Positions 5,427-57,275 of a stretch of 64,000 nt of DNA are shown here, in pieces. Within the stretch, counting starts at the first letter, position 1; each line of letters starts with the position of its first letter. The stretch is taken from contig JACPKW010000005.1 of the NCBI GenBank assembly GCA_016186825.1, forward strand, positions 66,025-130,024. Direction: 5' to 3'. Both the position numbers and the translations under genes were made by a program. Under the pieces are notes generated by a model. It had not been told where the DNA came from. It worked only from the letters and a program-made list of their open reading frames with translations, and searched no databases. This DNA is from Candidatus Giovannonibacteria bacterium (lineage in GTDB: Bacteria; Patescibacteriota; Minisyncoccia; JACPKW01; UBA11713).

Positions 5427-6197
5427 TCATTCCACAAGGATTGAACCGGACATTATTTCGGCATGTGCTGAACAGTGATAAGTATATATTCCCGATTCGT
5501 CGAAAACTAAACTAAAGCGATCTCCTATTTTAAGCAATCTGGAATTTTGCTCGGAATAATAAGTGTGGGCGGGATGAGAATCAGTGTTTACGTAATGTCC
5601 TTCGCTGTCATCATTAATCCAAGTAATTTTGGTTCCCTTGCTTGCGCGGATATTGTTTGGATTAAACTGGATATTCGACATTTTAATTTCAACTTCTGCC
5701 TTTCCGCGCTCATCTTTAAAACTTTCAGCCTTAGCACGATCCAGCGCGAACTGAAATTTTCCATCATGGCAGCTCCCATCCGGCCAGCACGCCTTGTATT
5801 CAACCGTGTAAAGCCCGTCTGGAGAATCCGCTTTCATTTTCCTTCTCATGGCGAGCTTGTTTTGGTCGATTGTAGTTTCGCCGAATCCATAATCTTTGCC
5901 GCTTTTGAGAATTCTTATTTCAGAAGATTTCGCGAGATCAAAATTAAAATCAATTACGATATTAACCGGAACACCCGCTAAAGTTGATCCGTGTGCAGGC
6001 GTATTAGATTCGTAATGCGCGCTTTTTTTGGGATTCGAAAAATTTATTTCGGAAGCACTATCCCCAGAAGGAGTTTGATTATTATTTTGATCATCCAAAG
6101 CTTTGTCGATATTTTCTTGACTCTGGTTGAAAAAGTAAAAACCGCCAAGAGCGAGAAGAATTACGAGTAGAACGGCAGAAATAATATATTTTTTCAT
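5427..6197 (-). CDS. Copper-binding protein: CopC-like domain fused to a C-terminal type-1 cupredoxin (plastocyanin-like), N-terminally anchored
   Basis: TM/signal segment MKKYIISAVLLVILLALGGFYFF. CopC-like segment HYESNTPAHGSTL. The C-terminus carries an H...YHCSAHAEIMSG copper site (H, C, H, M ligands). Confidence 0.65.
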   Translation of the reverse strand: MKKYIISAVLLVILLALGGFYFFNQSQENIDKALDDQNNNQTPSGDSASEINFSNPKKSAHYESNTPAHGSTLAGVPVNIVIDFNFDLAKSSEIRILKSGKDYGFGETTIDQNKLAMRRKMKADSPDGLYTVEYKACWPDGSCHDGKFQFALDRAKAESFKDERGKAEVEIKMSNIQFNPNNIRASKGTKITWINDDSEGHYVNTDSHPAHTYYSEQNSRLLKIGDRFSLVFDESGIYTYHCSAHAEIMSGSILVE

Positions 6198-6234: not shown

Positions 6235-7011
6235 TTAAGAAATCTTTTCCGATCCGCTTTGTTTCGATTTTTTAACAAATCCCGTGAACGCCTGCAAAAC
6301 TTCCAAAGGCACCGTAAATACGATGGTATTCGACTGGTCCGAAGAAATATCGTTTATGGCCTGCAGTGTTCTTAAATGAAGCGCTCCTTCAGAAGCGGCC
6401 AATGTACCGGCTGCGCGCGCGATATTTTGGGATGCCGCGAGTTCCCCTTCGGATGTAATAATAACGGCTCTTTTTTCACGCTCCGCTTCCGCTTGCTTCG
6501 CAATTGTTCGTTCCATAGTTCCCGGTAATTTTATATCTTTTAATTCAACATTGTTAACTTTGAGCCCCCAGGCGTCAGTTTCTTTATCAACTATTTCTTT
6601 GATGCGGTTTGCAATCGTCTCGCGCCCGCTCAAAAGTTCGTCCAAAGTAACTTCGCCGACGATATTTCGCATGGTCGTTTGCGCGTATTGTGAAATCGCG
6701 TAGAAAAAATTTTCAACTTCGAGAATCGCCTTTTCTGCAGAGGACACCCTATAATAAATGACCGCGTTCACGGCTACCGAAACGTTGTCTTTCGTAATCG
6801 CATTCTGATCGGGAACATCAACGGCTTTCACGCGCATGTCGACGGATTTATAAAATTGAAAAATCGGAAAAACCAAACGCCAACCGGGGTCCATGATCCC
6901 AGTGTATTTTCCGAATGTGAATTTCACGCCGCGCTCATACTGATTAATCTGCTTGATGCTGACAAGAATAATTACAATTACGGCTATTCCCGAAATATAA
7001 TAGATTTCCAT
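6235..7011 (-). CDS. SPFH/band-7 (stomatin/prohibitin-like) membrane protein
   Basis: N-terminal TM, then QYERGVKFTFGKY...AVIYYRVSSAEKA, typical of stomatin/QmcA-family proteins. Confidence 0.85.
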   Translation of the reverse strand: MEIYYISGIAVIVIILVSIKQINQYERGVKFTFGKYTGIMDPGWRLVFPIFQFYKSVDMRVKAVDVPDQNAITKDNVSVAVNAVIYYRVSSAEKAILEVENFFYAISQYAQTTMRNIVGEVTLDELLSGRETIANRIKEIVDKETDAWGLKVNNVELKDIKLPGTMERTIAKQAEAEREKRAVIITSEGELAASQNIARAAGTLAASEGALHLRTLQAINDISSDQSNTIVFTVPLEVLQAFTGFVKKSKQSGSEKIS

Positions 7012-7696: not shown

Positions 7697-9007
7697 TTAG
7701 AACTGATATTTTCGCGGAAAATAGAGCAAGTCTTTAGTAAGCAAAACTGGCATATCCGGAACTGTGCCCTTAATTTCCTTCGCCTGCTCAAGCGCGACAG
7801 TCCCAGGAGGCGGCCTTTCGGGTGTTAACTTACTCCCCAGTGGAATGTGGAGATTTTTTTCGATGATAACGCGGTCTAGTGTAGAGCCCGCTCCGACTTC
7901 GACGCCGTCAAACAGAACCGAGTTTGTGATAAAGCTGCCGGCACCGATTATACATCTGCTAATGACGCTGTGGCTTACAAAAATATTATCCTGAAAGATC
8001 GACCCGAATGAGAGCACCTCGTTGCAGGTAATATTATCTGCTTTCGTCGGAAATGCGGCGGCTTGCGTTACGCCGAAAAGCGGCCACTTTTCGGAAAACA
8101 TATCAAAGATGGGGTTTCGGCGGCACACTTCCATCTGCGCCGCATACCAGCTTTCAAGCGTTCCGACGTCCCGCCAATATCCGCGGCCTTGCGCTGTCAT
8201 ACCGGGATACTCGTTATCCACAAGGTTATAGCCAATCAGACTTTTTTCATGATGTATCAGCCACTGTAAACCCGCACTGCTTAACTTTTGAGCGGGATCT
8301 TTCGCGCGCAGTTTCTCAAGGTAGCCAAGCATTCCAAAAAACTCTTCCGATCTGATGACATACATCGCCAGATTAGCCAGGCAATAACCCGGCCGATCCG
8401 CGAGTTCCAATGGCTTCTCTGGTTTTTCTATGAGGTCGGCAACATTGCCATGTCTGTCCAATTCTAATACGCCAAAGTTATTTTTTGCCTCATTAACAGG
8501 TACAGCTTTATAAACCAGGAGAGCGCACGCTCCAGATTGAAATAGTTTTAACACCATCTGGCGATAATCACACTTAACTATTTGATCGCCCATCGCAATG
8601 ATGACGACGGCAGGGTTTTCATCTTCAAAGTATCGGCGCAATTGCAAGAGCGAATCTGCATCACTCTGGAAAAACCCGTTGGCTTCATGCAATGGCGGCG
8701 TCAAGTGACGAATAAAGTGACCGCGCTGGTGCCCGAGCGTTCCGCCGAACGCATCGCCCACATGTCTCATCAAAGATTGCGGGCGGTACTGGACTGCCAA
8801 AAAAATCCTGGAGCACCATGAATTGATAAGATTTGAGAGCTGAAAATCGACGAGGCGATATTTGGCGCCGAAAAAAAGCGCTGGTTTCGCGCGCTCGCTC
8901 GTCAACGGCCATAATCTTGTCCCAGATCCTCCAGCCAGAACAACTCCCAGAACATTTTCCATATTGACAACAAGAAAATCTTCCTTATTCATAATGTTTT
9001 GCGTCAT
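7697..9007 (-). CDS. glgC: Glucose-1-phosphate adenylyltransferase (ADP-glucose pyrophosphorylase)
   Basis: LGVVLAGGSGTRLWPLTSERAKPAL nucleotidyltransferase motif. C-terminal left-handed beta-helix region. About 436 aa. Confidence 0.88.
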   Translation of the reverse strand: MTQNIMNKEDFLVVNMENVLGVVLAGGSGTRLWPLTSERAKPALFFGAKYRLVDFQLSNLINSWCSRIFLAVQYRPQSLMRHVGDAFGGTLGHQRGHFIRHLTPPLHEANGFFQSDADSLLQLRRYFEDENPAVVIIAMGDQIVKCDYRQMVLKLFQSGACALLVYKAVPVNEAKNNFGVLELDRHGNVADLIEKPEKPLELADRPGYCLANLAMYVIRSEEFFGMLGYLEKLRAKDPAQKLSSAGLQWLIHHEKSLIGYNLVDNEYPGMTAQGRGYWRDVGTLESWYAAQMEVCRRNPIFDMFSEKWPLFGVTQAAAFPTKADNITCNEVLSFGSIFQDNIFVSHSVISRCIIGAGSFITNSVLFDGVEVGAGSTLDRVIIEKNLHIPLGSKLTPERPPPGTVALEQAKEIKGTVPDMPVLLTKDLLYFPRKYQF

Positions 9008-10655: not shown

Positions 10656-11156
10656 TTAATTTAGTACCCAAATGGAGTAGTTGAGATATGCGGCAAAGCT
10701 GACCCAAAGAATGTACGGAACGAGAAGCCAAGCGGCCGGTTTGGAGATTTTTGCAAAAGCGATGATGGTGGCGAGAATGGCGAGCCAGAGGAAGATGATC
10801 TCGACAAACGCGATGCCAATGTTGTTAAGACCGTTTAAGGTGAGCGAAGTCGAACCGAAAAAAATAATTGACCAGAGCATGTTTAAGACAAGCTGACCGA
10901 GGAATATGCCGAGAGCGATTTTTACATCCCTGCGATCCAGTCCCTTTTTCCAAACAAGGAACGCCGCGATGCCCATAAGCACGAACAGCGTCGTCCAGAC
11001 AGGTCCGAACACCCACGCGGGAGGATTAAGCGCAGGCTTCACGAGCCCGCCATACCAGTTCGGAATTACTGAGACAGTAAAAAACGAACCGATTATACCG
11101 GCCAATTCCGAAACACCAATCGCAATTATTAATTTAAAAAAATTATTAAGCTTCAT
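10656..11156 (-). CDS. tspO: TspO/MBR tryptophan-rich sensory protein
   Basis: Five TM helices. Conserved NPPAWVFGPVWTTLFVLMG and WLLVPYILWVSFAAYLN motifs. Confidence 0.85.
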   Translation of the reverse strand: MKLNNFFKLIIAIGVSELAGIIGSFFTVSVIPNWYGGLVKPALNPPAWVFGPVWTTLFVLMGIAAFLVWKKGLDRRDVKIALGIFLGQLVLNMLWSIIFFGSTSLTLNGLNNIGIAFVEIIFLWLAILATIIAFAKISKPAAWLLVPYILWVSFAAYLNYSIWVLN

Positions 11157-11169
11157 AAATTTGATTTGT

Positions 11170-11211
11170 TACAATATCCTTAAAAACTGGAGTTTTTAAG
11201 GATATTGTAAT
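11170..11211. promoter_or_regulatory. Perfect 19-bp inverted repeat with a 5-nt spacer: TTACAATATCCTTAAAAAC-TGGAG-GTTTTTAAGGATATTGTAA. Candidate operator upstream of tspO.
   Basis: Seen directly in the sequence. It overlaps the 3' end of the ArsR ORF and lies 15-55 bp upstream of the tspO start. A half-site recurs at 11514-11541 and 13079-13105. Confidence 0.5.
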
Positions 11212-11492
11212 GTCTTTTGAAACGACTGCAGAAAGTGGGCAAATGTTTTGCCATATGGTGACAGGGTGTGCTCCACAAATTTACCGCGGTACTTTTTATT
11301 CAGAAGTCCTGCCTGACAAAGTCGGCGTGTGTGTTCGCCAATAGTTTTTTCGTTGGCACCAAGTGCCTCAATAATATCCTCGAGCGTTATCCCGTTACGT
11401 TTCGCAATAAGAAGAAGTATATCAATCCGGTAATGATTGGCCAACCCCTTCAGATGCCGCTCCATTTGTTTCGCCGTCTTTATTTTTACCAT
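11196..11492 (-). CDS. ArsR/SmtB-family winged-helix transcriptional regulator
   Basis: HYRIDILLLIAKRNGITLEDIIEALGANEKTIGEHTRRLCQAGLL HTH segment typical of the ArsR family. About 98 aa. Confidence 0.8.
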   Translation of the reverse strand: MVKIKTAKQMERHLKGLANHYRIDILLLIAKRNGITLEDIIEALGANEKTIGEHTRRLCQAGLLNKKYRGKFVEHTLSPYGKTFAHFLQSFQKTLQYP

Positions 11493-11513
11493 AGTTATAT
11501 TATATACAATACA

Positions 11514-11541
11514 CTTACATTCTCAAGTTTTTAAGGATGTC
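11514..11541. promoter_or_regulatory. Half-site copy of the tspO-upstream palindrome (ACATTCTCAAGTTTTTAAGGATGT), located upstream of the ArsR gene
   Basis: Shares GTTTTTAAGGAT with 11170-11211. Lies 20-50 bp upstream of the ArsR start. Confidence 0.4.
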
Positions 11542-11753
11542 AGTTGGGTTTATTTTCTTCTGCATGAGCCGTGATCTAGATATTGCAACTCTTGTGCTCC
11601 CGACACCACGCTTCGCATTTCTCCGCGCACTTCTTCTTGAAGTAAGTGATTGACCTCGGGCCAGAGCTTTACACCTCCACACCAAAATTTTGGTGTATTG
11701 AGACGAGTTTGACAAGCTGGCGAAGTGTAGCAAAAAACTCCCGTCTTCTAATT

Positions 11754-13019
11754 TTATTTTAAGCAAGACCGATAAAGTTTCAGATGATCCAAAACCAGAC
11801 GCGGGAATAAAAAATTCTCCAAAACGGTTTTTCTCGCAGTTTTACCCATTATTCTTTTCTTTGACGGATGGGATAAAAGAAAAATTATTTTTTGAGCCAT
11901 TTCCTCGGGAGATTTCACAATAAAGCCGTTTTCCCCATTTTGTATCTGTTTTCTGATTCCCGAAGCCGGGCTGCCGATTATCGCCTGGCGTTTCCACATT
12001 GCTTCCGTGACCACCAAGCCAAAACCTTCTTTGACGGAATTTTGAACGATGACATCAGCCGCGTTTTGCGCCATAACGGTAAACTCTAAAACATCTTTTC
12101 CTTTTGGATCAAAAAATAAATAAATATCGCGGGATTTGCCGGCAATAGCAGCAATATCTTTATAAACTACCATTGCTGCTGGATTATCTTTGGCAGTGTT
12201 GAAGCCAACCAAAGCCAGTTGCGCGCCCGGGTAGGTATTTTGAACTATTCGGAAGGCCTGGATAACTCCCATCGGGTTTTTCCAAACATCAAAGCGCGAT
12301 ACCTGCGCAACGAGAGGACAACTTGCTGGAATGCCGCCGTGTTTTTTTAAATACAGACGGGCAACTTTTTGGGAAACAATCTTTTGCTTGGGAGCCAGAG
12401 GATCTATGGCCGGCGTGAAAACTTTTATTTTGCGTCCCGGCAAACTGCCGCTAACAAAATTGCGATTACTGAAAACAATTCGATGATAGGATGCAACGGC
12501 AGGAAGAAGTTTTTTCCAAACCTGTCTAAAAACAGAAGAGGTGTCAATATGACTGAAATATATTTTATGCTTATGAAGACGCGCGAGATGTCCAGCCAAA
12601 AGAAGTTGGGGATCATTTACGGCCAAAACATCACAATCAATTTTATCAAGCTCGGCGGCGATGCGCCCGCTTAACCTTTCATATTCAGTCCATTCCCGAC
12701 CGCTGATTTTTACCGGCGCGCCTTGCAAAGCGTTGTGAATTTTGTTGGTTACCTCAAAAAACTTTTTGCTGACGTCGGGATTGATAAAATACCAGTCGCT
12801 TTCAACACCTAAAGAACGAAAATACAGGACGAGACTTGCAAGTATTTCCGCGACGCCTCCGCCATCCGCTACAGCATTGATATGCACCACTCTTTTCCCC
12901 CGAAGATAAGAGGCCTGCTTCAATAATTCCCCTTTTTGCCCCTCCGGCATAAATCTCAAAAAGTCTGCTCGGCGTACTTGTTTTGAAAGAATGATTTTTC
13001 GGATATTTAAATTTTTCAT
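11754..13019 (-). CDS. treT: GT4-family glycosyltransferase, TreT-like (trehalose glycosyltransferring synthase) by motif
   Basis: N-terminal HINAVADGGGVAEILASLV ... KIHNALQG resembles TreT/trehalose-synthase GT4 enzymes. C-terminal EGFGLVVTEAM GT-B motif. Confidence 0.55.
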   Translation of the reverse strand: MKNLNIRKIILSKQVRRADFLRFMPEGQKGELLKQASYLRGKRVVHINAVADGGGVAEILASLVLYFRSLGVESDWYFINPDVSKKFFEVTNKIHNALQGAPVKISGREWTEYERLSGRIAAELDKIDCDVLAVNDPQLLLAGHLARLHKHKIYFSHIDTSSVFRQVWKKLLPAVASYHRIVFSNRNFVSGSLPGRKIKVFTPAIDPLAPKQKIVSQKVARLYLKKHGGIPASCPLVAQVSRFDVWKNPMGVIQAFRIVQNTYPGAQLALVGFNTAKDNPAAMVVYKDIAAIAGKSRDIYLFFDPKGKDVLEFTVMAQNAADVIVQNSVKEGFGLVVTEAMWKRQAIIGSPASGIRKQIQNGENGFIVKSPEEMAQKIIFLLSHPSKKRIMGKTARKTVLENFLFPRLVLDHLKLYRSCLK

Positions 13020-13078
13020 AACTCCTTATTTTCTTTTTGAATCACTTTGACCATATTTTTGATTGTACACAATACCCC

Positions 13079-13105
13079 AACATTCTCAAGTTTATAAGGA
13101 TGTTA
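13079..13105. promoter_or_regulatory. Third copy of the ArsR-box-like motif (ACATTCTCAAGTTTATAAGGATGT), upstream of the TreT-like gene
   Basis: Lies 60-85 bp upstream of the minus-strand start at 13019. Confidence 0.4.
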
Positions 13106-13283
13106 CGCGCTGGATGCGGACTAACGGACGGATGCTCTAAATTTTCCACCGAAAACCTTTCGGACACTCTAAAATTTTTCCTCTCCGGACTCAAAACCAC
13201 CAAAGGAATTGAAAGAAATCTTTTTGCTAAAAAGTTTCTTTCAAACATTTTCTATTCCCCCGAAAGCATTAAAATCCGCTTCA

Positions 13284-13415
13284 CCCCGTTAGAAAATTCT
13301 TTTCTAACGGGGGTTCATTTCTCGCCAAAGCGTCCCGCCGTGGCGGGACGCGGAGCGAAGCCCAGCCCCGCTTGTAGCGGGGCTGGGCGACCTGCCTGCC
13401 GGCAAGGCAGGGCGA
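13284..13415. repeat. Cluster of four strong GC-rich hairpins, including the CCTGCCTGCCGGCAAGGCAGG member of a dispersed palindromic repeat family
   Basis: Perfect 13-bp hairpin CCCCGTTAGAAAA/TTTTCTAACGGGG. Also CGTCCCGCC-GTG-GCGGGACG, CCCAGCCCCGC-TTGTA-GCGGGGCTGGG and CCTGCCTGCCGGCAAGGCAGG. The last of these recurs at 56900-57030. Confidence 0.55.
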
Positions 13416-13440
13416 ACCCTCTCGTCTTCAAAAAATGAGT

Positions 13441-13660
13441 TCGTATCTAGTTTCTTGGCTCCATACCCTGAACGAAATCCGAACGCATTTTCAGGAAACC
13501 TCCGACGAATGAAGCCGCCCCGCCGCCGCTCGCTAACGCTCGCCAGCCAGCAAAAAAGTTTTCTCTGCATTTCTGATTTTGCGCGCGCCGGATTTCTCCC
13601 CCCAACCCCCTCCTGCCGAGCCGTCCTCACGGTTGGCGGTGGCGTTTATTTCTAAATTAT
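13441..13660. repeat. Left terminal inverted repeat (~200 bp) of the cassette; outer terminus TGGCTCCATACCCTGAACG
   Basis: Its reverse complement matches 19010-19265 almost exactly, apart from an ~85-nt insertion in the right copy. Confidence 0.8.
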
Positions 13661-15147
13661 AAAGTTTTATGAAGTGCCTGCCAAATTGAATACATCGCAT
13701 ACGTATCAAGCCCACAATATATTTTTAGATCGTTTATGGATTTCTCTTTTTGGGCGTCGTTAAAACCGCCACTTACGATTTTATTCCAAGTATCTGCGGC
13801 ACTTCCACCATCTCGTATTTCAAGCTCTTTGTATGATAATTCAGGAACTAAAACAGGCAAAATTCTTTTTATGGAAGTGCCGCCCCTAAAGTCTCGGTGT
13901 ATATGATATTGTTTTCTAAAAATATCTTCCAAGTCATACACGCGTCCTTTCAAGGAATCCATAAACGATTTCATTTCGGGAATTCTAATCGCAATCTCGT
14001 CGTTTCTTCCACACTCAAATCCTTTGTGCCAAACAATAATACTCCCAGTCGTACCCAAATGTTTTTGTAACGATTCAGCAAATGATTTACTCGGATCATC
14101 GGACGCAACGTGTAAAAACTCATAATGTTCCGGTTTGCTTTCCGGCGACTTCAAAACATCAACGGAATATTGGAACGGTATTTGATGGTAGGGGGAAAAC
14201 CCGTCAAATCTTGGAATTGCCGCTGGAAACGTTTCGTAATCTAAAAAATATAAGGGGAATGTTAAAGCATCAAACTCTGCTTTGATTTTTTCTTTTTCAA
14301 CCAAAACTTTATTCAGAATATATGTGTCAACCTGGCCCTGTTGAATATCGGTTAGCTTGATATGGGAAGGAATTTTATCGAGGTGAAAAATATTATTATC
14401 AATCAATTCCTTCAGTTTTGCTTTACTGTTTCCTATGCGCGCTATATCGTGGACGCTATATTCTGGAACTTCTGGATTTGAATGCTGAAAGGTTGAACAA
14501 TGCTTGGAGCGTCCTTTATAAACACAACAGCAATATCCGTTTGGTTTAGTCTCTTGAGAAAGATATTCAAGTGCCCCTTGCGATTCATTGGATACTTCTG
14601 TTGTTAAACTTTCAACTTCGCTAGTGACATCGACAATCTTAAATAAATTTTGAATGTCAAGATCATTCGTTCGCACATATTCCGAATTCAAATGTATTAT
14701 GTATGCCTTGTCGATTTGTAAACCATGCTTTCTTAGTAAGTTAACTTGAAAAGCTAGGTCGTGATAATGAGTTTTGTTATCTACGTCGCTTGTTGATTTT
14801 ATTTCGTATACAAAATAACCACCGCTCTCCGGATTAAACTTCAAAACATCTATTGCCGCCAAAAGATTACCACCAACAAAGACAGGTTGAAACAGGATTT
14901 CTTGATGCTTTGCAATGTAATCCTGCGTAACTTTTTGCCCTTCCTCATCTCGCCGTTCAATTAAAACGCCGCCTGGAAATAATTTCCGCGCTATCAATTC
15001 AACTTCATTACCTGTCTCCATGATGGACTTTTCAAATTCAGATAATTCAGATTCAGAATAAATGTCTGGTCTATGTATTTTATACCAGACATTTTGAGGG
15101 CATTCTCTATAAAGAATATAATCAGTTTTTGTAAGTGTAATAGTCAT
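13657..15147 (-). CDS. DUF2779-family protein: N-terminal Cas4/RecB-like PD-(D/E)xK nuclease with a Cys cluster plus a C-terminal DEDD (RNase H-like) exonuclease-like domain
   Basis: N-terminus TKTDYILYRECPQNVWYK (DUF2779-like). CCCVYKGRSKHCSTF cysteine cluster. YFLDYETFPAAIPRFDGFSPYHQIPFQYS (D-x-E) and YCGLDTYAMY at the C-terminus. Confidence 0.65.
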   Translation of the reverse strand: MTITLTKTDYILYRECPQNVWYKIHRPDIYSESELSEFEKSIMETGNEVELIARKLFPGGVLIERRDEEGQKVTQDYIAKHQEILFQPVFVGGNLLAAIDVLKFNPESGGYFVYEIKSTSDVDNKTHYHDLAFQVNLLRKHGLQIDKAYIIHLNSEYVRTNDLDIQNLFKIVDVTSEVESLTTEVSNESQGALEYLSQETKPNGYCCCVYKGRSKHCSTFQHSNPEVPEYSVHDIARIGNSKAKLKELIDNNIFHLDKIPSHIKLTDIQQGQVDTYILNKVLVEKEKIKAEFDALTFPLYFLDYETFPAAIPRFDGFSPYHQIPFQYSVDVLKSPESKPEHYEFLHVASDDPSKSFAESLQKHLGTTGSIIVWHKGFECGRNDEIAIRIPEMKSFMDSLKGRVYDLEDIFRKQYHIHRDFRGGTSIKRILPVLVPELSYKELEIRDGGSAADTWNKIVSGGFNDAQKEKSINDLKIYCGLDTYAMYSIWQALHKTL

Positions 15148-15148
15148 A

Positions 15149-18100
15149 TTAAGATTGTATCCATCCTTTATCTTCTAGCTTTCCAATGACAATGCGTCCG
15201 ATTGTCGCATTATCTTGAAATGAGTAGATCAATCCAGCATGGCGTGTTTTCAAGCCAATCCATGTTTTTACTTCTAGCGCAACCGCCAAATTTTTACCAT
15301 CAGGTGATAGCTCGGCCGCCTCAACTTTGCATTTTCCACCCTTTAGCGAAGCGGACACATAATCGTTTATCGTCTGCCATAACTCCGGCTTATCAGATTT
15401 TTTCCTTGTTCCATTCAAAAGATTGAATAACAAATCTAGATGAAATGGGGCTTGCGTGGAAATAAATTCTGAATATACAGGTACCCCTGTCAGCTCGCAA
15501 TCTTTTAGATCTTCGGGATGACATTTGCGACCACTCCACGAACAAGACCTTGCTTCCGAAGGAGAACAGAAATTCCCAATAATAGAACGAACGGCTTCAG
15601 TTTCAAGGAGGGGCGCACCAGACAAGTTGCTGAATATAAATTCTTGCTTATGGCCCGTCTTGCCAGAAACAACAGATTTTAGCTGTTCATCGTTTCGATA
15701 TTTTTTCCCCGATATTTGGCTAACTGCCAATTCACTTTCAAGAACTTCTGATTTAGTGAATTCACATATTCCAAAATATTGCGCTTCGGCACGCTTCCCA
15801 CTTAGAACCGATGTCTTTAAAAATTTTTTAGCAACCATCTCTCCGGTTACAGCTGATTTTTCCGCCTCATCAACCAAAACTCGCTTCTGGCTGAATGCAC
15901 AGAGAACAGTGTGCTCTGGATATGCGAACCGACTACTTATCTCCGATTGGACCAGAAAATGTCGAAGTGCAACTTGTTTAGTAATAGCGCATTGACCGAG
16001 ACAGTCGCGGGGTACTACCTTGCCGGATTTCATACATTTATCCATTTCAGGCGATATCACCTTTGTCGAAAAAGGAGTTATGGTCAATAGACTTCTATAT
16101 TCGCCGCCCTCATCAAATTTGTATGACACTCTTGTTTTCAAATCTCTATGAACGGTGCCTTCAAGACCAACCAATGAAATTTCTAATCTGGGAGTAAATT
16201 CGTCTTCAAGTTTTTTCTTTTTGCGTAGATCGTTACCCGCCGAGGCCATTTCCTGCTCTCTCCTCTCGGTATAAAAGCGACAGAAATCCAAAATATTTGG
16301 ATCTTGCATTGCTTTTTCTGCTAACTTTTTAGAAATTGCACCTATTGTCGTGGGGTTTTCTATTTGAGCACCTATCGGCTCAAGTCCAATCTTGGTAACA
16401 AAGTTGAAATGTTCTTCTGGAGAACATTCAACCTCAACCAATCGCTCATAACTATCATGAGCCACGGTTGCACGAACTCTTAACAACGCCTTACCTGCAA
16501 AATGCCTCGATACGTCTTGTATATCAATTTCTCTAAAATCTGCCCCGAAATTTTTGACCCAATCATTTGCAATTTTCTCGGCTCCCATGTGAGGATTTTG
16601 ATCGTTATCGTCCACGAGATGCAATCCGACATTTGTAACCTTACTCACAAGGCGTTCAAATACTGCCGTACCGGGAGCGTACAAAATACTTTCTTCTTTG
16701 CCGCTCAAGGTATTGTTATCAAATCGAATTAACTCTCTTTTTCCACCGAGATGCGACACGACCATATTGCCATCTTCCTTAAGTTTCGCACCAAAATCAG
16801 ATAGAGCAGTTAATACAAAAGTGCGAGCATCTATGGTGTGCTCTGTCTGCGGTAGTTTAGGACAGCGCGGACCAAAATCCTGCATGTCTCCCATACCGCC
16901 GAGAAGTGAATTAATGTTCTTTTCTTCTTTTTCTAGCTCTGATTTTGCGTTTTTTATACTTTCTTCGGCTTGCTTGGTTGCTCGCTCCACGTCCTTACCC
17001 GCTAGCGAAGCAACGACTAATTGTCTTATCTTCTCCTCAAAGCCACTCGATCCATTTTCCTCTCCCTCGTCGATTCCCGACGCTTCAAGCAGAGCCTCAA
17101 TGTCTCCGATTGCATGAGATGCCAACTGCAATTTTTCCATTAATCTGCCAACAATGTACTCCTCAAAAGTATTTTTTAAGACGATGTTAAAAATAGATAC
17201 GTTTTCAAAATTAGAAGACAATCGTTGAATACGACCGATACGTTGTTCAACGATCATCGGATTCCATGGTAAATCATAATTAACTAGAACGTTTGCGGCT
17301 TGTAGATTGATACCCTCTGAACCAGCTTCGGTTGATACAATAACGTGAATTTCGGGTAAATCCTTCTTAAACTTCGCAATAGTTTCTTGGTTCCTAGTAT
17401 TAGAATCACCGTTTATAAGTCCGCAAGAAATTTTTTCTTTTTCAAGAAAACTTTGTATTGCTGTTTGAGTTTCGCGCCATCGAGTGAACACAACTAACCG
17501 CCACGTGTCTGGTTGTTCCACTCTTAGTTTTTCAATCAAAGCACTAAGTCCTTTTAATTTTGTCGTTGTCTTAATGTCTTTCGCAATTTCTTTAACATCC
17601 TTTGCTAAAGATTTTGGCGCGGTATCCTTTTTCGCCATTCCTTCTAGTAGTTTAACTAGCGCCTCGGGGCTACTTACAAGTGCTTGTAAGATTACTATCT
17701 GCGAAAGGTAATTTAGTTCTTGGATTGGTTTCGCAATTACCCTGAAAAGATCTAACTCCTTTTCAGATGGTTCAACTTTATGCATCAGAACTTTTCTTTC
17801 AGGGAAGTGGAGCTTTGCGTCTCCTCTGCGCACACGAGACATATATCCATAGACAATCGAGCGAAATTCATCACGCATTTCCGGTTTAAGTTGGCGTGCA
17901 GTAGTCCGACTATCGGCTATAAATTTTCGAGCGAATGTACCTTGATTGCCAAAGGGATTTTCATGACCTCGTGCAACGGTTAATAAATCCACCAAGGAGT
18001 AAAGATCCCAGAGACGATTTTGTATTGGGGTAGCAGTTAGCATCAGAACATATTTGAATAACCTATCAGAAAGCGCCTTGCGAAATCTTTGTGCAACTTG

Positions 18101-18667
18101 TGGTGTAGGGTCAACGCCGTAAAGATTTCGCAGTTTGTGTGCCTCATCAAGTATCAGCATGTCGAAGCCGTCCTGTTTGATTCTATCGAGATACAATCTA
18201 GCGGTGTTATAAGTTGTTATCACTGCTCCCGTCTCCTCGGGAGGTTCTGCAGTGATAAGTTCTCTGCCGGTAACAATCACTGAAGGGATATCGAATTTAA
18301 CATCCAATTCCTCTTTCCACTGCTCGCGGAGTATTTTCGGGCAGACCACCAATATTTTCGAAATCCTTCCTCGTGAAATGAGTTCACTTACAACCAATCC
18401 GGCACTTATTGTTTTTCCAAGACCAACATCATCTGCCAACAAAGTGACCGGAAGACGACGGCAGAAAGAAATAAGATTTGTAACTTGATGATGGTAGGGC
18501 TCAACACGATCGCGCCATTTACTTTCCGATCGCATATCCTCCCTATCTTCAATAACGATAGGTTCAACCAAGTCCCACTCAAGAGCAGCCCGATACAAAC
18601 CATACTTTTCTGGAGTAGAAGCTCTCTTTAGTGTTCTTGTCTGAAATGGTAGCTGAGATAAATCCAT
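15149..18667 (-). CDS. SNF2/Swi2-family helicase (N-terminal ~530 aa) fused to an uncharacterised ~640-aa Cys-containing C-terminal region
   Basis: Motif I LADDVGLGKTI, motif II LILDEAHKLRN, motif III LTATPIQN, motif VI QRIGRIQR. The C-terminal half has no recognisable motifs. Confidence 0.85.
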   Translation of the reverse strand: MDLSQLPFQTRTLKRASTPEKYGLYRAALEWDLVEPIVIEDREDMRSESKWRDRVEPYHHQVTNLISFCRRLPVTLLADDVGLGKTISAGLVVSELISRGRISKILVVCPKILREQWKEELDVKFDIPSVIVTGRELITAEPPEETGAVITTYNTARLYLDRIKQDGFDMLILDEAHKLRNLYGVDPTPQVAQRFRKALSDRLFKYVLMLTATPIQNRLWDLYSLVDLLTVARGHENPFGNQGTFARKFIADSRTTARQLKPEMRDEFRSIVYGYMSRVRRGDAKLHFPERKVLMHKVEPSEKELDLFRVIAKPIQELNYLSQIVILQALVSSPEALVKLLEGMAKKDTAPKSLAKDVKEIAKDIKTTTKLKGLSALIEKLRVEQPDTWRLVVFTRWRETQTAIQSFLEKEKISCGLINGDSNTRNQETIAKFKKDLPEIHVIVSTEAGSEGINLQAANVLVNYDLPWNPMIVEQRIGRIQRLSSNFENVSIFNIVLKNTFEEYIVGRLMEKLQLASHAIGDIEALLEASGIDEGEENGSSGFEEKIRQLVVASLAGKDVERATKQAEESIKNAKSELEKEEKNINSLLGGMGDMQDFGPRCPKLPQTEHTIDARTFVLTALSDFGAKLKEDGNMVVSHLGGKRELIRFDNNTLSGKEESILYAPGTAVFERLVSKVTNVGLHLVDDNDQNPHMGAEKIANDWVKNFGADFREIDIQDVSRHFAGKALLRVRATVAHDSYERLVEVECSPEEHFNFVTKIGLEPIGAQIENPTTIGAISKKLAEKAMQDPNILDFCRFYTERREQEMASAGNDLRKKKKLEDEFTPRLEISLVGLEGTVHRDLKTRVSYKFDEGGEYRSLLTITPFSTKVISPEMDKCMKSGKVVPRDCLGQCAITKQVALRHFLVQSEISSRFAYPEHTVLCAFSQKRVLVDEAEKSAVTGEMVAKKFLKTSVLSGKRAEAQYFGICEFTKSEVLESELAVSQISGKKYRNDEQLKSVVSGKTGHKQEFIFSNLSGAPLLETEAVRSIIGNFCSPSEARSCSWSGRKCHPEDLKDCELTGVPVYSEFISTQAPFHLDLLFNLLNGTRKKSDKPELWQTINDYVSASLKGGKCKVEAAELSPDGKNLAVALEVKTWIGLKTRHAGLIYSFQDNATIGRIVIGKLEDKGWIQS

Positions 18668-18932: not shown

Positions 18933-19009
18933 GAGTATCAATGGGAGTTCCAAAAACTTGTCCGCGCACTGGGAGGGTGGGGCAAGGACAAGAAAAGAAA
19001 TAAACGCCA

Positions 19010-19265
19010 CCGCCAACCGTGAGGACGGCTCGGCAGGAGGGGGTTGGGGGGAGGAATGCCGAGCCGTCCGAGCGAATAGAAAAGAGGCCAGCCCCGCCGC
19101 CTGCTCTGTTAGGAGCAGAAGCCAGCCAAAAAGTTTCGCAAAATCAGAAATGCAGAGAAAACTTTTTTGCTGGCTGGCGAGCGTTAGCGAGCGGCGGCGG
19201 GGCGGCTTCATTCGTCGGAGGTTTCCTGAAAATGCGTTCGGATTTCGTTCAGGGTATGGAGCCAA
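19010..19265. repeat. Right terminal inverted repeat of the cassette (copy of 13441-13660 with an ~85-nt insertion)
   Basis: Reverse-complement identity to the left TIR over about 200 nt. Ends in GGAGCCA. Confidence 0.8.
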
Positions 19266-19479: not shown

Positions 19480-21000
19480 ATGAAATACTTTTTATACATC
19501 AGAAAATCAACGGACGAGGACGACAGACAAGTTTTGTCGCTGGAAGCGCAGGAAACGGAATTGAAAGAATTTGCCTTGCGGGAAAATCTTTTGATCGCCG
19601 CGACTTTCCGCGAATCGCAGACCGCCAAAGAGCCGGGCAGACCGATTTTTAACGATATGCTCAAACGAATGGAGCGCGGCGAGGCCGAGGGGATTTTAGC
19701 GTGGCATCCAGACCGATTGGCGAGAAACAGCATAGACGGCGGACGGATTATTTTCTTGGTAGACACTGAAAAAATCAGATCGCTAAAATCCCCGACATTT
19801 TGGTTTGAGCCGACCCCGCAAGGCAAATTCATGCTCAATATCGCTTTTGGGCAATCCAAATACTTTGTGGATAATCTTTCAGTGAATACCAAAAGAGGGT
19901 TGCGTCAAAAATTGCGCCGAGGCGAATTGCCCGGCTATGCGCCGCTTGGCTATTTGAACGACTTGCTAAAACACACAATCTACAAAGACCCCGAACGTTT
20001 TCGCCTCGTCCGCAAACTTTTTGAACTTTACGCAACCGGAAATTATTCTCTGAAAGATTTGCGGAAGTTGATAACTTCCGCCGGCTTGTTGAGCCGCAAA
20101 GGAAATATGCTTTCCGTCTCCAATATCCAAAATATACTCTCTACTTCATTTTATTATGGCGTATTCAAATACAATGGCGAACTCTACGACGGAAAGCATG
20201 AGCCAATGATTGCAAAGAAACTTTTTGAAGCGTGCCAAAAAGTGATGGCGGATCGTTCGCGCCCGAAAAAGCCGAGCCAAAAGGAATATCCGTTTAGAAA
20301 CTTGCTCAAGTGCGGCGAGTGCGGGTGCGCTATCACTTCCGAAACGCAAAAAGGACATAACTACTACCGCTGTACCAAAAAGAAAGACAAGCAATGTTCG
20401 CAAAAATATATCCGCGAGGAAGTTTTGGCACGCCAGATTTCGGACGAGATTCAAAAAGTTTCTTTGCCTCCCGCTTGGGCGGAGTGGATGTTAGCAGAAC
20501 TCAACAAGGAAGAAGCAGAAGCCGCCCAAGCGGGCGCCGTTTTCGCTCAAAATCTCAAAAACAAAATAAAAGAGCTTGAAGGAAAGCTCGACCTGCTTTT
20601 AGATGCACATTTAGCCAGCACTATTTCGCGCGAGGAATACACCGCCAAAAAAGAGAAATTGATAATTGAAAAGGCCGAGCTTTCCGAAAAATTGAAGGAT
20701 TTTGAGCGAAACGGCAATCATTGGCTCGAACCGGCCCGGCAATTCATTTTAGCGGCTCAACAAGCCAAAATTATCGCTTTGCAAGAAAATCCCGTCACGG
20801 GACGGGATTTTCTAAAAAGAATTGGCTCGAACCACGTTTTGCGCTCGCAAGCGATTTGCTTTGAACCCAAAAAGTCGTGGAAAATTCTTGCTGATGTGCC
20901 CGCCGAGGGGCGAAGCCCCGAGGCGGTGAACTCGTATCATACAATTTGGCTCCCCGGGCAGGATTCGAACCTGCGACCCACTCCTTACACTTATCCCTAA
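19480..21000 (+). CDS. Large serine recombinase (resolvase/invertase catalytic domain, recombinase domain, zinc ribbon and coiled-coil). The last ~40 codons read through the right IR and the tRNA 3' exon.
   Basis: YIRKSTDEDDRQ catalytic Ser motif. CGECGCAITSETQKGHNYYRC zinc ribbon. The ORF end overlaps 20878-20952 and tRNA 20947-20987. Confidence 0.85.
   Translation: MKYFLYIRKSTDEDDRQVLSLEAQETELKEFALRENLLIAATFRESQTAKEPGRPIFNDMLKRMERGEAEGILAWHPDRLARNSIDGGRIIFLVDTEKIRSLKSPTFWFEPTPQGKFMLNIAFGQSKYFVDNLSVNTKRGLRQKLRRGELPGYAPLGYLNDLLKHTIYKDPERFRLVRKLFELYATGNYSLKDLRKLITSAGLLSRKGNMLSVSNIQNILSTSFYYGVFKYNGELYDGKHEPMIAKKLFEACQKVMADRSRPKKPSQKEYPFRNLLKCGECGCAITSETQKGHNYYRCTKKKDKQCSQKYIREEVLARQISDEIQKVSLPPAWAEWMLAELNKEEAEAAQAGAVFAQNLKNKIKELEGKLDLLLDAHLASTISREEYTAKKEKLIIEKAELSEKLKDFERNGNHWLEPARQFILAAQQAKIIALQENPVTGRDFLKRIGSNHVLRSQAICFEPKKSWKILADVPAEGRSPEAVNSYHTIWLPGQDSNLRPTPYTYP
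20878..20952. repeat. 75-bp inverted repeat, right copy. It overlaps the 3' end of the intron-containing tRNA.
   Basis: Reverse complement of 19258-19332. Confidence 0.85.
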
Positions 21001-43221: not shown

Positions 43222-45168
43222 TTAAAAACTTTTCAAATCATAGCAATAGCGGTTTGCTTCACCGCCGCAACCTTTGGAGTCTGCTCCGTTGAAACCTAAA
43301 TTACTGTCTGAATCGTTACTTAATTGTGTGGAAATTTTTTCTTCCAGGCTTGCTCCCACATGATAAGATTTACGGTCCGCGCTTACAGCGAATTTGTACG
43401 CTTTATTATCTAAAGTGTCTGTCGTATTAATTCCGGGGATTTGCGTAGTTAACTCTGCAAGCGTTTTTGGATACCTTCCTTGCGCATCTGCAGAAATCTC
43501 CATTGCCTTAGTTAAATTCTGAATATCTGCGACACGCTTTGCGTCGCGGCCTCTCATTCTTGCAGTTTCCACTCCACCGCCGATTGGACTCATACCTTGA
43601 GTAACAAAACTTGCAATCATCTGTTTTAATTCTTCATCGAATGAAATCGCATTCGAGGGTTTTTTAACTTCAGCTGTATCAAAATCCGAAAGCTCAAGAG
43701 TAATTTCTGTCCTCACGCCTATTCCGCCGTAATCCGCGAGCGGAATTGAGGCATTGAATCTTTCAAGGTAATTCGTATTTTTATTAACCCAAGCTTCGAT
43801 GGAAGCTTTTGAAAGTTTGTCTACAAATTGGTTAATGGCTTGTTCATCGCTTTTAGTAAGCGGGCGCTCCTGCTCAATTTTCATGATCTCCCCAAAGAAA
43901 TGTTTGATATCAGCAATATTGGCTATAAGCGTATAGTGGAAATTATCTCCGTCCTTACCAACAGAAGCGACTTCAAAAAGCGTGCTCTCTTTCAAAACAT
44001 TTCTGATTTTCTCCATTTTTTCCCGATCAACTTCTGTATCGTCTTTCGGAAGTAATTTCAAATCAGAAAGAGTTTTTGCCTTGAGCGAATACCAGTTTTT
44101 TAAGAGTTGCGAGGGATCGAGGGTGGAAAAAGGAGTCATCGACAGCATTGGGGACATAAGCTGGATCGGCAGTTCCACCAACCTAAAGTAATACACCTCA
44201 TTTACATCGCGAAACTCTGCTCCAAACCCGATCGACTGATCTTTCTGTTTAACGTTCATATCGAAAAGAATAGACACATTGCCGTTATCTTCATCAACCG
44301 ACTCGAAAGCGCCGCTCGCGCGGATTTCAATTTCAGAATCGGACAAATCCTGGGGCAATACTTGCGGAACGCCGGACGGAGGTGCCGCGGTCTCGGAGAT
44401 TACAGGGGGCAAAGGAATTTTGCCGGGCTCGAAAAAATTCAAAACAGATTGAAACACAGACGCGGGCGCAAGTTTTTCTAAACCGTCTTCAAGTTTTTTT
44501 CTTTCTTCATAATTTTGAGAAACACTCTCGTCAATATTTTGGGTCTTTAGTTTAATTCTTAAACTGTAAGTCAAGCTTTTTAAGTCAGACATCTTGGAAG
44601 GCATCGCAGTGAAAACCCGATTAGGCATTTCCTTGTAGTATGCCCACCCCGCGAAAACACCCGTTCCCCCAAGAATTAATACAACTAGCGTTAGAATAAA
44701 AACTCGATGCGCCTTAAAGCCCCCCATTTTAATTGCGCCAATACCGGAGGCAAACTTTGAATCGCCCTTAAAAAAAGAGTTTTGAGGGATGTTTTGGATT
44801 GCCGGGGCAGTCCCATTCGCGTTAGATAAAAATGTCGATTGAGCCGGCTGTCCTGACTCTAGTTTCGAATATTCTTTCGGAGATTCCTTTGTGACTATGC
44901 TCGATTGATTATTAACTTTAGGTTCATTTGCGGGAAGAGCGGGTGCAAAGGTTTGAAAAGATTTTGGCTCAACTTGCGGAAATTTTTTCACTTCTTCCGG
45001 CTGAAAAACTGAAGCGGGCTTCTGTTGAACTTTGTTGGCCTCTGAAAACGCGTTTGCAACATCTCCAAGTTTCCAGCCTGCGCCCTCCAGCTGATGCTGA
45101 ATTACGTCATCTTTTAAACCGGCCTCGCGGGCATCTTTTATAAATTTCACCGCATTCTGGTCTGCCAT
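43222..45168 (-). CDS. Large single-TM protein (648 aa) with a C-terminal pilin/pseudopilin-like globular domain
   Basis: TM segment RVFILTLVVLILGGTGVFAGWAYY. The C-terminus (RGRDAKRVADIQNLTKAMEISADAQGRYPKTL) resembles type IV pilin-like domains. No prepilin cleavage site. Confidence 0.45.
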   Translation of the reverse strand: MADQNAVKFIKDAREAGLKDDVIQHQLEGAGWKLGDVANAFSEANKVQQKPASVFQPEEVKKFPQVEPKSFQTFAPALPANEPKVNNQSSIVTKESPKEYSKLESGQPAQSTFLSNANGTAPAIQNIPQNSFFKGDSKFASGIGAIKMGGFKAHRVFILTLVVLILGGTGVFAGWAYYKEMPNRVFTAMPSKMSDLKSLTYSLRIKLKTQNIDESVSQNYEERKKLEDGLEKLAPASVFQSVLNFFEPGKIPLPPVISETAAPPSGVPQVLPQDLSDSEIEIRASGAFESVDEDNGNVSILFDMNVKQKDQSIGFGAEFRDVNEVYYFRLVELPIQLMSPMLSMTPFSTLDPSQLLKNWYSLKAKTLSDLKLLPKDDTEVDREKMEKIRNVLKESTLFEVASVGKDGDNFHYTLIANIADIKHFFGEIMKIEQERPLTKSDEQAINQFVDKLSKASIEAWVNKNTNYLERFNASIPLADYGGIGVRTEITLELSDFDTAEVKKPSNAISFDEELKQMIASFVTQGMSPIGGGVETARMRGRDAKRVADIQNLTKAMEISADAQGRYPKTLAELTTQIPGINTTDTLDNKAYKFAVSADRKSYHVGASLEEKISTQLSNDSDSNLGFNGADSKGCGGEANRYCYDLKSF

Positions 45169-56877: not shown

Positions 56878-57078
56878 GCTGGGCGAGTGGCGGAATCGGC
56901 AGACCTGCCTGCCGGCAGGCAGGCGCGCTGGTCCACCCTGTTAGAAATTTTAATAAATGAAATATTTATTCAGTCTGGTGCTGGGATGGCGGAATCGGCA
57001 GACCTGCCTGCCGGCAGGCAGGCGCGCTGGTCCACCCTGTTAGAAATTTTAATAAATGAAATATTTATTCAATCTGGT
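56878..57078. repeat. Two tandem ~100-nt direct repeats, each beginning with the first ~24 nt of tRNA-Leu (GCTGGGATGGCGGAATCGGCAGAC) followed by the GC palindrome CCTGCCTGCCGGCAGGCAGG and an AT-rich hairpin
   Basis: Units at 56878-56979 and 56980-57078 differ by a 3-nt indel and one substitution. The third repeat start is the real tRNA at 57079. Confidence 0.85.
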
Positions 57079-57162
57079 GCTGGGATGGCGGAATCGGCAG
57101 ACGCGCACGCTTCAGGAGCGTGTAGGAGAAATCCTGTGGGAGTTCAAATCTCCCTCCCAGCA
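57079..57162 (+). tRNA. tRNA-Leu(CAG), type II; CCA not encoded
   Basis: GCTGGGA-TG-GCG-GAATCGGCAGA-CGC-G-CACGC-TTCAGGA-GCGTG-TAGGAGAAATCCTGT-GGGAG-TTCAAAT-CTCCC-TCCCAGC-A. Discriminator is A73. Confidence 0.85.
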
Positions 57163-57275
57163 CAGGGTTTATCGATTTCTAGCGGGGCAAGGAAGCCAGT
57201 GGGAGCAATCTCGTGGAGGTTCAAATCCTCTCTCGCCCGCCTTTAAAAACTAATTATCAGCATTAATATAATAAA

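Follow-up and report, generated by a model that had tools for sequence, protein, structure and literature searches.

Introduction

Autorepressors of the ArsR/SmtB family, such as SmtB, CzrA, CadC and ArsR and the non-metal regulators HlyU, SqrR/BigR, PagR and SdpR, act at inverted-repeat operators of the 12-2-12 type. Here we describe a gene for a 98-amino-acid ArsR/SmtB-like winged-helix protein, together with a 34-bp palindromic motif that accompanies it, in a Giovannonibacteria-like metagenome-assembled genome (MAG); both lie within 64,000 nucleotides of contig JACPKW010000005.1, a stretch that was analysed as a whole and is called the window below. The locus resembles the known ArsR/SmtB systems in the fold of its protein, in the match to Pfam HTH_5, in an x-2-x palindrome lying over its own promoter and in a small, dimeric-type protein without a separate sensor domain. 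Unlike the ArsR/SmtB sensors, the protein has no metal site, and its score of 37 bits with the NCBIfam model HTH_metalloreg is under the cut-off of 55. The locus is further set apart from known family members by a 34-bp predicted operator (16-2-16) with four ACAnnC boxes, by the bracketing of the gene between two such sites, the second at the stop codon, by a promoter within the site, by a transcript predicted to be leaderless, by extreme conservation throughout the candidate phyla radiation (CPR), by the existence of two specificity classes, and by neighbours that are not metal or sulfide genes.

Four other described systems share part of this organization. HrcA is a winged-helix repressor paired with a conserved inverted repeat, CIRCE (TTAGCACTC-N9-GAGTGCTAA), and here too a phylum-spanning, highly conserved palindrome is found before the regulator's own operon and a few others; the CIRCE palindrome can in addition function, once transcribed, as an RNA hairpin. 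The two protein families are, however, unrelated, the sequences are different, and the locus described here has no chaperone regulon, its putative targets being heterogeneous. AspA of the Sulfolobus plasmid pNOB8 is an ArsR-like centromere-binding protein and a structural neighbour of the present protein (TM score 0.63-0.70, root-mean-square deviation (rmsd) 2-3 Å). Both are small ArsR-like proteins with a palindrome just before their own gene, which AspA binds and which the protein described here is predicted to bind, but the context is chromosomal here, neither parA nor parB was seen beside the cassette in the loci inspected, and the similarity is at the level of the fold only. In the RAYT systems, which are associated with repetitive extragenic palindromes (REP), a gene is likewise bracketed by palindromes that its product presumably recognises, and solitary intergenic copies exist besides; in contrast, the protein here is a winged-helix protein and not an HUH/Y1 transposase, the sites number a handful rather than hundreds per genome, and the upstream copy is integral to a promoter. 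Finally, controller (C) proteins and their C-boxes have in common with our prediction a size of about 100 amino acids or less and autoregulation through palindromic boxes over the -35 element, and C-protein transcripts are often leaderless, but C proteins are of the Xre-type helix-turn-helix class rather than winged-helix proteins, and no restriction-modification genes are adjacent here. All four resemblances are functional analogies only.

Most CPR bacteria (Patescibacteria) have not been cultured, and their genomes contain very few genes for transcription factors. The literature searched held no account of a cis-regulatory code for these organisms, nor any description of this regulator-site pair, an absence that is not proof of novelty.

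Three full-length sites in the window

The whole region is encoded on the minus strand and holds tspO, the ArsR-like gene and a TreT-like glycosyltransferase gene, followed by a DUF2779 gene and an SNF2 helicase gene. The original prediction had been that a shared operator-like motif lies upstream of the first three. Repeat, 13-mer, pattern and matrix searches all bear this out: the 34-bp motif is present exactly three times in the window, before the ArsR-like gene, tspO and the glycosyltransferase gene, with all copies in register. A repeat search groups three in-register 42-nt copies (11164-11205, 11499-11540 and 13062-13103) with 74-100% identity; all four exact occurrences of the 13-mer ATCCTTAWAAACT in the 64 kb fall within 11176-13101; and the in-register pattern AYATCCTTAWAAACT-N2-AG-N10-TATTGTR (36 nt) matches these sites alone, with none expected from 100 shuffles. 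When scored with a weight matrix derived from related genomes, the three sites reach 42-46 bits and the rest of the window stays below 0 bits throughout; an extra half-site at 44777 (14.8 bits) is inside the shuffle range.

The site before the regulator gene, O1 (GACATCCTTAAAAACTTGAGAATGTAAGTGTATT; 11508-11541, minus strand; 43.7 bits), overlaps the regulator's own promoter. O2 (11169-11210; 42.0 bits) is a perfect palindrome of the form 20-2-20, with arms TTACAATATCCTTAAAAACT and AGTTTTTAAGGATATTGTAA around a GG spacer; its right arm contains the regulator stop codon (11196-11198), and 12 nt separate the end of the palindrome from the tspO ATG (11156). O3 (AACATCCTTATAAACTTGAGAATGTTGGGGTATT; 13071-13104, minus strand; 46.2 bits) precedes the glycosyltransferase gene and is 86% identical to the O1 region across 42 nt. 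The right halves of O1 and O3, AGAATGTAAGTGTATT and AGAATGTTGGGGTATT, represent a common variant with a -35-like TTGAGA, and the three regions share one register from the site to an ATG 15-16 nt beyond it. The inverted repeat announced before tspO is thus perfect, as had been said, but its 20-nt arms and 2-nt spacer make it longer than was described, and the copies before the regulator and glycosyltransferase genes, which had been taken for half-sites, are both full-length 34-bp sites.

A generic promoter, an UP-like element or a common genome repeat without a specific regulator might also produce shared upstream motifs, and indeed the two best sigma-70-like matches between 9000 and 14000 both fall inside motif copies, those of the regulator and glycosyltransferase genes. 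This explanation is scarcely credible, since the 64 kb hold no more than three copies, all of them less than 2 kb from the regulator gene despite the many other genes of the window, most sites elsewhere have no in-register -10 element, and the type of site follows the regulator subfamily (see below). The motif scans of the window and of the sampled loci accordingly reveal neither a generic promoter nor a high-copy repeat, as sites elsewhere number, by a rough estimate from the sample, a handful per genome, and this candidate was rejected.

The adjacent ArsR/SmtB-like protein

The gene between O1 and O2 (11196-11492, minus strand) encodes the predicted site-binding regulator, which belongs to the subfamily called A below. 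Its Pfam matches are just above threshold (HTH_5, 24.2 bits with a cut-off of 22; HTH_24, 25.8 bits), and its best sequence matches in the PDB are ArsR (E = 0.003), SmtB and HlyU. An AlphaFold2 model (mean predicted local distance difference test score 80.9) has the canonical ArsR/SmtB topology a1-a2-a3-aR-b1-b2-a5, with helices at residues 7-18, 21-32, 37-44 and 48-60, strands at 64-69 and 72-77, and a last helix at 79-95. The top Foldseek matches of this model in the PDB are HlyU, SqrR, CadC, AntR, SmtB, CzrA and PagR, with the centromere-binding AspA also among them; the presence of autorepressors among these nearest structures was counted in favour of an operator function of the motif. A total of 2111 homologues were retrieved, the top 120 of which are all more than 80% identical to the query, and their names point to Uhrbacteria, Parcubacteria, Liptonbacteria, Sungbacteria and Minisyncoccales. 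The protein is 70-88% identical across deeply divergent CPR lineages. The phage and plasmid collections held no close homologue.

Inspection of the regulator alignments revealed none of the residues of the ArsR/SmtB metal sites (the a3 CxC motif, the a3N site and the a5 DxHx10Hx2E motif). The single cysteine, C59, is not conserved, homologues having Y, F or V in its place, and the consensus of the C-terminal helix, YGKTFVRFLKSFQ, contains no conserved set of Asp, His or Glu. The metal cue that had been suggested for the regulator is therefore without basis, and the suggested oxidative-stress cue fares no better, as no cue of any kind can be inferred from the sequence. Five residues, H13, H20, H54, H75 and E11, are invariant and are candidate sensing positions. 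With regard to the motif itself, its most likely explanation is that it is the cognate site of the adjacent ArsR-like protein.

Promoter architecture at the regulator gene

The promoter predicted for the regulator gene (11499-11526, minus strand) matches the consensus at 11 of 12 positions, with a -35 element TTGAGA (11526-11521), a 16-nt spacer and a -10 element TATAAT (11504-11499). TTGAGA forms the very centre of O1, TATAAT lies 3 nt past the site, and the ATG (11492) follows 6 nt after the -10 element, so that the regulator mRNA is predicted to be leaderless. This geometry recurs at related loci. Among 64 sites upstream of regulators, a perfect TATAAT follows 34, at an offset of +3 in 30 cases, and the distance from the -10 element to the ATG is exactly 6 nt in 38; TTGAGA is spaced 16 nt from TATAAT at 38 of 63 regulator promoters, and the TTGAG centre is oriented toward the regulator gene by 33 to 1. 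A good in-register -10 element accompanies 72% of A-type and 41% of B-type sites upstream of regulators, compared with 0-2% at control offsets. In several loci (L004, L022, L028, L101 and L061), the site has moved by 10-22 nt relative to an unchanged -10/ATG unit, which speaks for the site being a separable protein-binding element and not a part of the promoter itself.

In the window as in all 31 genome loci examined, an inverted-repeat site lies over the position of the -35 element and spacer of the promoter predicted to drive the regulator gene itself (this comparison concerns position only). Autoregulation, as originally proposed, is therefore strongly indicated by the sequence arrangement.

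Recurrence in CPR genomes and two specificity classes

A genome scan with the regulator gave 31 loci, whose record titles name mostly Patescibacteria lineages; among the third-party annotation assemblies, the labels Gammaproteobacteria (a few) and Saccharibacteria (many) were taken to be automatic names. All 31 loci have a 34-bp palindromic site some 16 nt ahead of the regulator ATG, and in 27 an intact second site begins at or in the regulator stop codon. The site consensus is AACATCCTTACAAACT-KG-AGWWTGTAAGGATGTT, in which invariant positions (C7, A10, A12, C15, T16 and their mirror positions) alternate with free ones. A degenerate-pattern scan of metagenome contigs, many of them short, added 120 loci, 34 with and 86 without a regulator homologue. 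Over the full set of 151 loci (966 kb), a weight-matrix threshold of 20 bits yielded 248 sites, and none in shuffled sequence: 63 lie upstream of a regulator, 58 downstream, 25 elsewhere in regulator loci and 102 in regulator-less loci. The regulator is flanked on both sides by its own sites in about 60 loci, and sites cluster near the regulator gene, as in L009, where five A-type sites fall within 3.4 kb. As a rough estimate, each regulator copy has its two flanking sites and a few others per genome, which is a small set. Regulator and site thus probably constitute a conserved CPR/Patescibacteria cassette recurring in dozens of genomes.

The form of the site varies with the regulator. Regulators with at least about 68% identity to the window protein are accompanied by A-type sites (ACATCCTTACAAACT), and nearly all those with 43-69% identity by B-type sites (ACATTCnnACATTCT-NN-AGAATGTnnGAATGT). 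The residues diagnostic of the two subfamilies include E48F and G52S in the recognition helix and K71R, F72x and E74x in the beta-wing, besides L14F and Y21R. Sites of both types stand together on one contig in L036, L009 and L006. This switch of site type with regulator subfamily argues, indirectly, for binding of the motif by the protein.

Several features of individual loci deserve mention. The B-type family (AACATTCCAACATTCT-NN-AGAATGTTGGAATGTT) is common in CPR metagenome contigs (L033-L151, e.g., L038, L052, L054 and L132), where its sites mostly occur without promoters and several copies can part consecutive genes, with four copies in 2 kb in L052; further B-type sites are found in L006 (1390 and 6068) and L009 (8270). 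In L023, a 28th site at the regulator stop codon is split by a G+C-rich insertion (~6300-6440). Just past the regulator stop in L006 (~1855-1915), a G+C-rich insertion of about 60 nt likewise sits exactly at the site centre, with the junctions ACAAACTTG | CCTGCCCGCC...GGCGGG | AGAATGTAAGGATG, and it holds CCTGCC motifs like those of the G+C-rich repeats of the window. A small insertion element with a preference, or a tolerance, for the centre of the palindrome may be involved.

A proposed mechanism and its alternatives

In our judgement, an operator function probably explains what was observed, namely a conserved motif, a recurrent promoter geometry and a site type that covaries with the regulator subfamily. 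The three motif copies would be full 34-bp sites (16-2-16, with four ACAnnC-like boxes) bound by the ArsR/SmtB-like protein. Protein dimers would occupy O1, cover the -35 element and spacer and thereby repress the regulator's own gene, and the duplicated promoter-operator at the TreT-like gene would be repressed likewise in this Giovannonibacteria-like MAG. At O2, the bound protein would either halt transcription that reads through from the regulator promoter or keep a weak promoter of tspO repressed.

A number of observations weigh against this interpretation. A site of 34 bp is long for a single ArsR dimer, and O2 has no -35 element (CTCCAG) and only a weak -10 element (ACAAAT). Of the sites downstream of regulators, 15% and 0% have a good in-register -10 element, as do 5-7% of the orphan sites, a frequency equal to the control rate. 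The centre of some regulator promoters reads CTGGAG or CTGCAG, with no -35 element, which would fit activation as well. Four other distinct CPR tspO loci have neither a regulator nor a site of at least 10 bits. The genes beside the sites are functionally heterogeneous. Orphan sites lie in 52 tandem, 16 convergent and 5 divergent intergenic regions, against a background of 72%, 14% and 14%, respectively; these gene-context statistics rest on a crude gene call based on open reading frames (ORFs) and are approximate. The orientation of TTGAG at orphan sites is unrelated to gene starts, which is odd for simple promoter operators.

Part of this evidence could be accommodated if the same protein, bound to the same site, were an activator occupying a class II-like position over the -35 region and recruiting RNA polymerase to promoters that lack a -35 element, its own included. 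Centres reading CTGGAG, CTGCAG or CTTAAG, without a -35-like hexamer yet with a perfect TATAAT at the regulator, are found at many sites, for example in L009, L012, L019, L036 and L094; the tspO site of the window also has no -35 element; and HlyU, the top structural neighbour, is titled 'Transcriptional activator HlyU' in the PDB. Nevertheless, the majority of regulator promoters (38/63) carry TTGAGA-16-TATAAT, a complete sigma-70-type promoter for which no activator is needed, and the sites displaced by 10-22 nt from the -10 element in the five loci listed above are incompatible with a fixed class II geometry. ArsR/SmtB proteins are, moreover, overwhelmingly repressors. We thus regard activation as unlikely and repression as the better account of the direction of control.

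Hairpin potential of the sites

The palindrome could instead function mainly as an RNA 3' end, terminator or stabiliser, or as a REP-like DNA palindrome, with a secondary link to the regulator or with a dual DNA and RNA role as for CIRCE. O2, with its perfect 20-bp arms, folds as RNA with -23.9 kcal/mol (z = -9.0), and the second site begins at the regulator stop codon in most loci. Across the collection, hairpin-type signals are present but modest: arm covariation exceeds what column frequencies predict (287 complementary cells vs. 212 ± 8), and flanks lengthen the palindrome by up to about 4 nt beyond chance. G-U-type mismatches outnumber A-C-type mismatches on the sense strand 33 to 15 downstream of regulators, compared with 29 to 25 upstream, a bias at transcribed sites that hints at a CIRCE-like dual role. 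The orphan sites, which lack promoters, also prefer convergent to divergent regions.

On the other side, neither O1 nor O3 has a significant fold (z = -2.3 and -1.0), so what the three window sites have in common is a sequence pattern and not hairpin potential. A control comparing arms across sites within a locus gave 3.64 complementary positions vs. 4.11 within a site, which makes most of the arm covariation a lineage effect, and upstream, downstream and orphan sites differ little, or not significantly, in how perfect their palindromes are. The alternation of invariant and free positions is not mere conservation of pairing. O2 is not an intrinsic terminator: its stem is A+T-rich (4 G-C pairs in 20), its minus-strand continuation ACAAATCAAATTT contains no U-run, and the only terminator-like match that the scan gave there is on the plus strand, which is antisense; nor does a U-tract follow the hairpins in the other sequences inspected. 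The covariance models of Rfam 15 detected no family at the sites, and between 9000 and 14000 gave only spurious sub-threshold HepC_CRE matches, in the G+C-rich stretch at 13276-13495. Finally, a hairpin function leaves unexplained why the site type switches with changes in the recognition helix. A known RNA family and a pure RNA hairpin were both rejected on these grounds, and the hairpin explanation in its broader form is distinctly improbable. Protein binding is probably the common denominator of the sites; the stop-codon site may act as a roadblock, in DNA looping between the two sites (about 335 bp apart) or as an RNA 3' hairpin.

Genes beside the sites

Past the stop-codon site, the genes most often encountered are tspO (5 loci), mnmA (3), GT4 transferases (3) and a RecD-like helicase gene (2), whereas ftsK, rarA, rtcB, trpS, a DNA glycosylase gene and others occur at one locus each. 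Given this heterogeneity, the coherent stress or osmoprotection circuit that had been imagined for the window is not shown. The window contains no further site, and the three-gene set, though real in this genome, does not amount to a conserved stress regulon.

The window tspO (10656-11156, minus strand; 166 amino acids, TspO/MBR family, Pfam TspO_MBR 2e-47) has no Shine-Dalgarno sequence, and its ATG lies 16 nt past the 34-bp core, in the same register as that of the regulator. Its product is 100% identical to a protein of a Candidatus Giovannonibacteria MAG, encoded on a contig of 138,753 bp. tspO directly follows the regulator in six loci (the window, L005, L015, L017, L150 and L023), with an ATG 14-24 nt past the site; the sixth is the locus whose site is split by the G+C-rich insertion. 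The regulator thus has tspO as a recurrent neighbour, in partial support of the proposed regulon, but the four distinct tspO loci without site or regulator, which come from a set selected by TspO similarity (L152-L157, tspO at ~4001), have what looks like a leaderless promoter of their own (TAAAAT, 6-7 nt, ATG). The link between regulator and tspO is therefore lineage-restricted, and tspO was rejected as a conserved regulon member. In L157 (4493-5671), mnmA follows tspO, and in three other loci mnmA comes directly after the regulator, which suggests an older gene order regulator-tspO-mnmA. In the Taylorbacteria locus L017, an A-type site of about 46 bits (5567-5600) lies inside the tspO coding region, 235 nt in.

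The TreT-like GT4 glycosyltransferase gene (11754-13019, minus strand; 421 amino acids, Pfam TreT_GT1 1e-34) is preceded by the Shine-Dalgarno sequence AAGGAG. The protein scores 246.8 bits with the NCBIfam model TreT_Thcocales, far under the cut-off of 775, so that it is TreT-like and not an established trehalose synthase. In and after O3 lies a promoter-like element (13062-13089, minus strand) consisting of TTGAGA, a 16-nt spacer and TACAAT, which matches the consensus at 10 of 12 positions and is in register with the regulator promoter. Sequence reading and alignment of the three regions also reveal a 12-codon mini-ORF, MVKVIQKENKEL* (13016-13054, minus strand), that begins 16 nt past O3 with ATGGTCAAA, where the regulator begins with ATGGTAAAA; its stop codon overlaps the glycosyltransferase start (ATGA), and it contains the Shine-Dalgarno sequence of that gene. 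From the shared first codons and register, O3 looks like a duplicated regulator promoter with first codons attached, and the mini-ORF would be a remnant of the duplicated regulator 5' end. Predicted to begin right at the 5' terminus of the glycosyltransferase mRNA, it could serve as a leaderless upstream ORF with translational coupling, or could simply be left over from the promoter duplication.

The sole homologue of the glycosyltransferase in the 151 loci (L094; 72% identity) lies 2 kb downstream of a regulator. On that 5.3-kb contig, nothing but the regulator's upstream site reaches 5 bits, and no site precedes the glycosyltransferase gene, which was thus rejected as a conserved regulon member. 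The trehalose-synthesis arm of the original prediction accordingly comes down to a site that is specific to this genome and resembles a duplicated regulator promoter, before an enzyme that is TreT-like. A glucose-1-phosphate adenylyl/nucleotidyl-transferase-like gene (7697-9007; 436 amino acids, NTP_transferase), 2.7 kb from the TreT-like gene, could supply it with an NDP-sugar donor; the matrix scan of the window detected no site before it.

A mobile or self-maintaining cassette?

The bracketing of the regulator by its own sites in about 60 loci, amid highly variable neighbours, raises the question of whether gene and flanking sites together form a selfish or semi-autonomous cassette, or behave like a centromere, with RAYT/REP and AspA of pNOB8 as analogues, and do not serve gene-specific regulation. 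The unusual 70-88% conservation across the CPR and the clustering of sites near the regulator (L009) would fit such a role, as would the low rmsd of AspA (2.0-2.9 Å), among the lowest of the structural neighbours, and the two apparent regulator 5'-end remnants that follow orphan sites, in L032 and at the glycosyltransferase site of the window. These are, however, the only two of about 185 non-regulator sites with a regulator-like N-terminus after them, and the idea that orphan sites are decayed regulator genes was rejected. No transposase, recombinase or ParA/ParB was consistently adjacent in the loci inspected, although no systematic screen was made; the copy number is low; and a plain autoregulator requires exactly the promoter geometry found at the regulator gene. 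Of 2.9 million viral contigs, a single one has the motif, which together with the lack of a close homologue in the phage and plasmid collections led us to reject a phage or plasmid origin. We consider a selfish cassette very improbable and retain the operator interpretation.

The one positive contig of the viral collection (L158; IMGVR_UViG_3300025323_000435, 40,750 bp) carries three sites at 577-1205, two of which are spaced by 335 nt as in the regulator cassette; it probably derives from a CPR genome and was misfiled among the viruses.

A more far-reaching possibility, which we consider unlikely, is that site-gene-site is an autonomous, self-insulating module spread across the CPR, whose palindrome would be both a DNA operator and an RNA hairpin at the 3' end of the regulator mRNA, and which would seed operator copies, sometimes with promoter and first codons as before the glycosyltransferase gene of the window, ahead of or after arbitrary genes. 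At least two orthogonal classes, A and B, would be present side by side within one genome. If true, it would be a winged-helix analogue of the RAYT/REP relationship.

Repeats near the locus

Near-perfect inverted repeats of about 200 nt (13455-13653 and 18996-19265; 129 nt at 100% and 69 nt at 94% identity), which begin some 200-350 nt from O3, bracket the DUF2779 (Cas4-like) and SNF2 helicase genes (13657-18667). Alongside, a large serine recombinase gene (19480-21000; 506 amino acids) lies within 126-nt perfect inverted repeats (19258-19383/20828-20953). Possible explanations for this arrangement are an invertible segment, an integrated mobile element and an artefact of the assembly. G+C-rich stretches stand out in this A+T-rich genome at 13330-13650, 13374-13404 and 56888-57085. 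A 99-nt unit duplicated in tandem (99% identity) directly precedes, and overlaps the start of, a tRNA-Leu gene (57079-57163), and it shares GACCTGCCTGCCGGCA with the stretch at 13374-13404.

Significance

In this genome, TspO and a TreT-like sugar transferase are linked to the regulator. Beyond it, the analysis provides a concrete, predicted regulator-operator pair in many CPR lineages, for which a 34-bp consensus is defined and two specificity variants exist in nature; the residues that distinguish these variants point toward the positions in contact with DNA. It also provides a defined leaderless promoter architecture, TTGAGA-16-TATAAT-6-ATG. The pair could be a first handle for promoter and operator prediction in the CPR, for heterologous reporter assays and for the search for the signal that is sensed.

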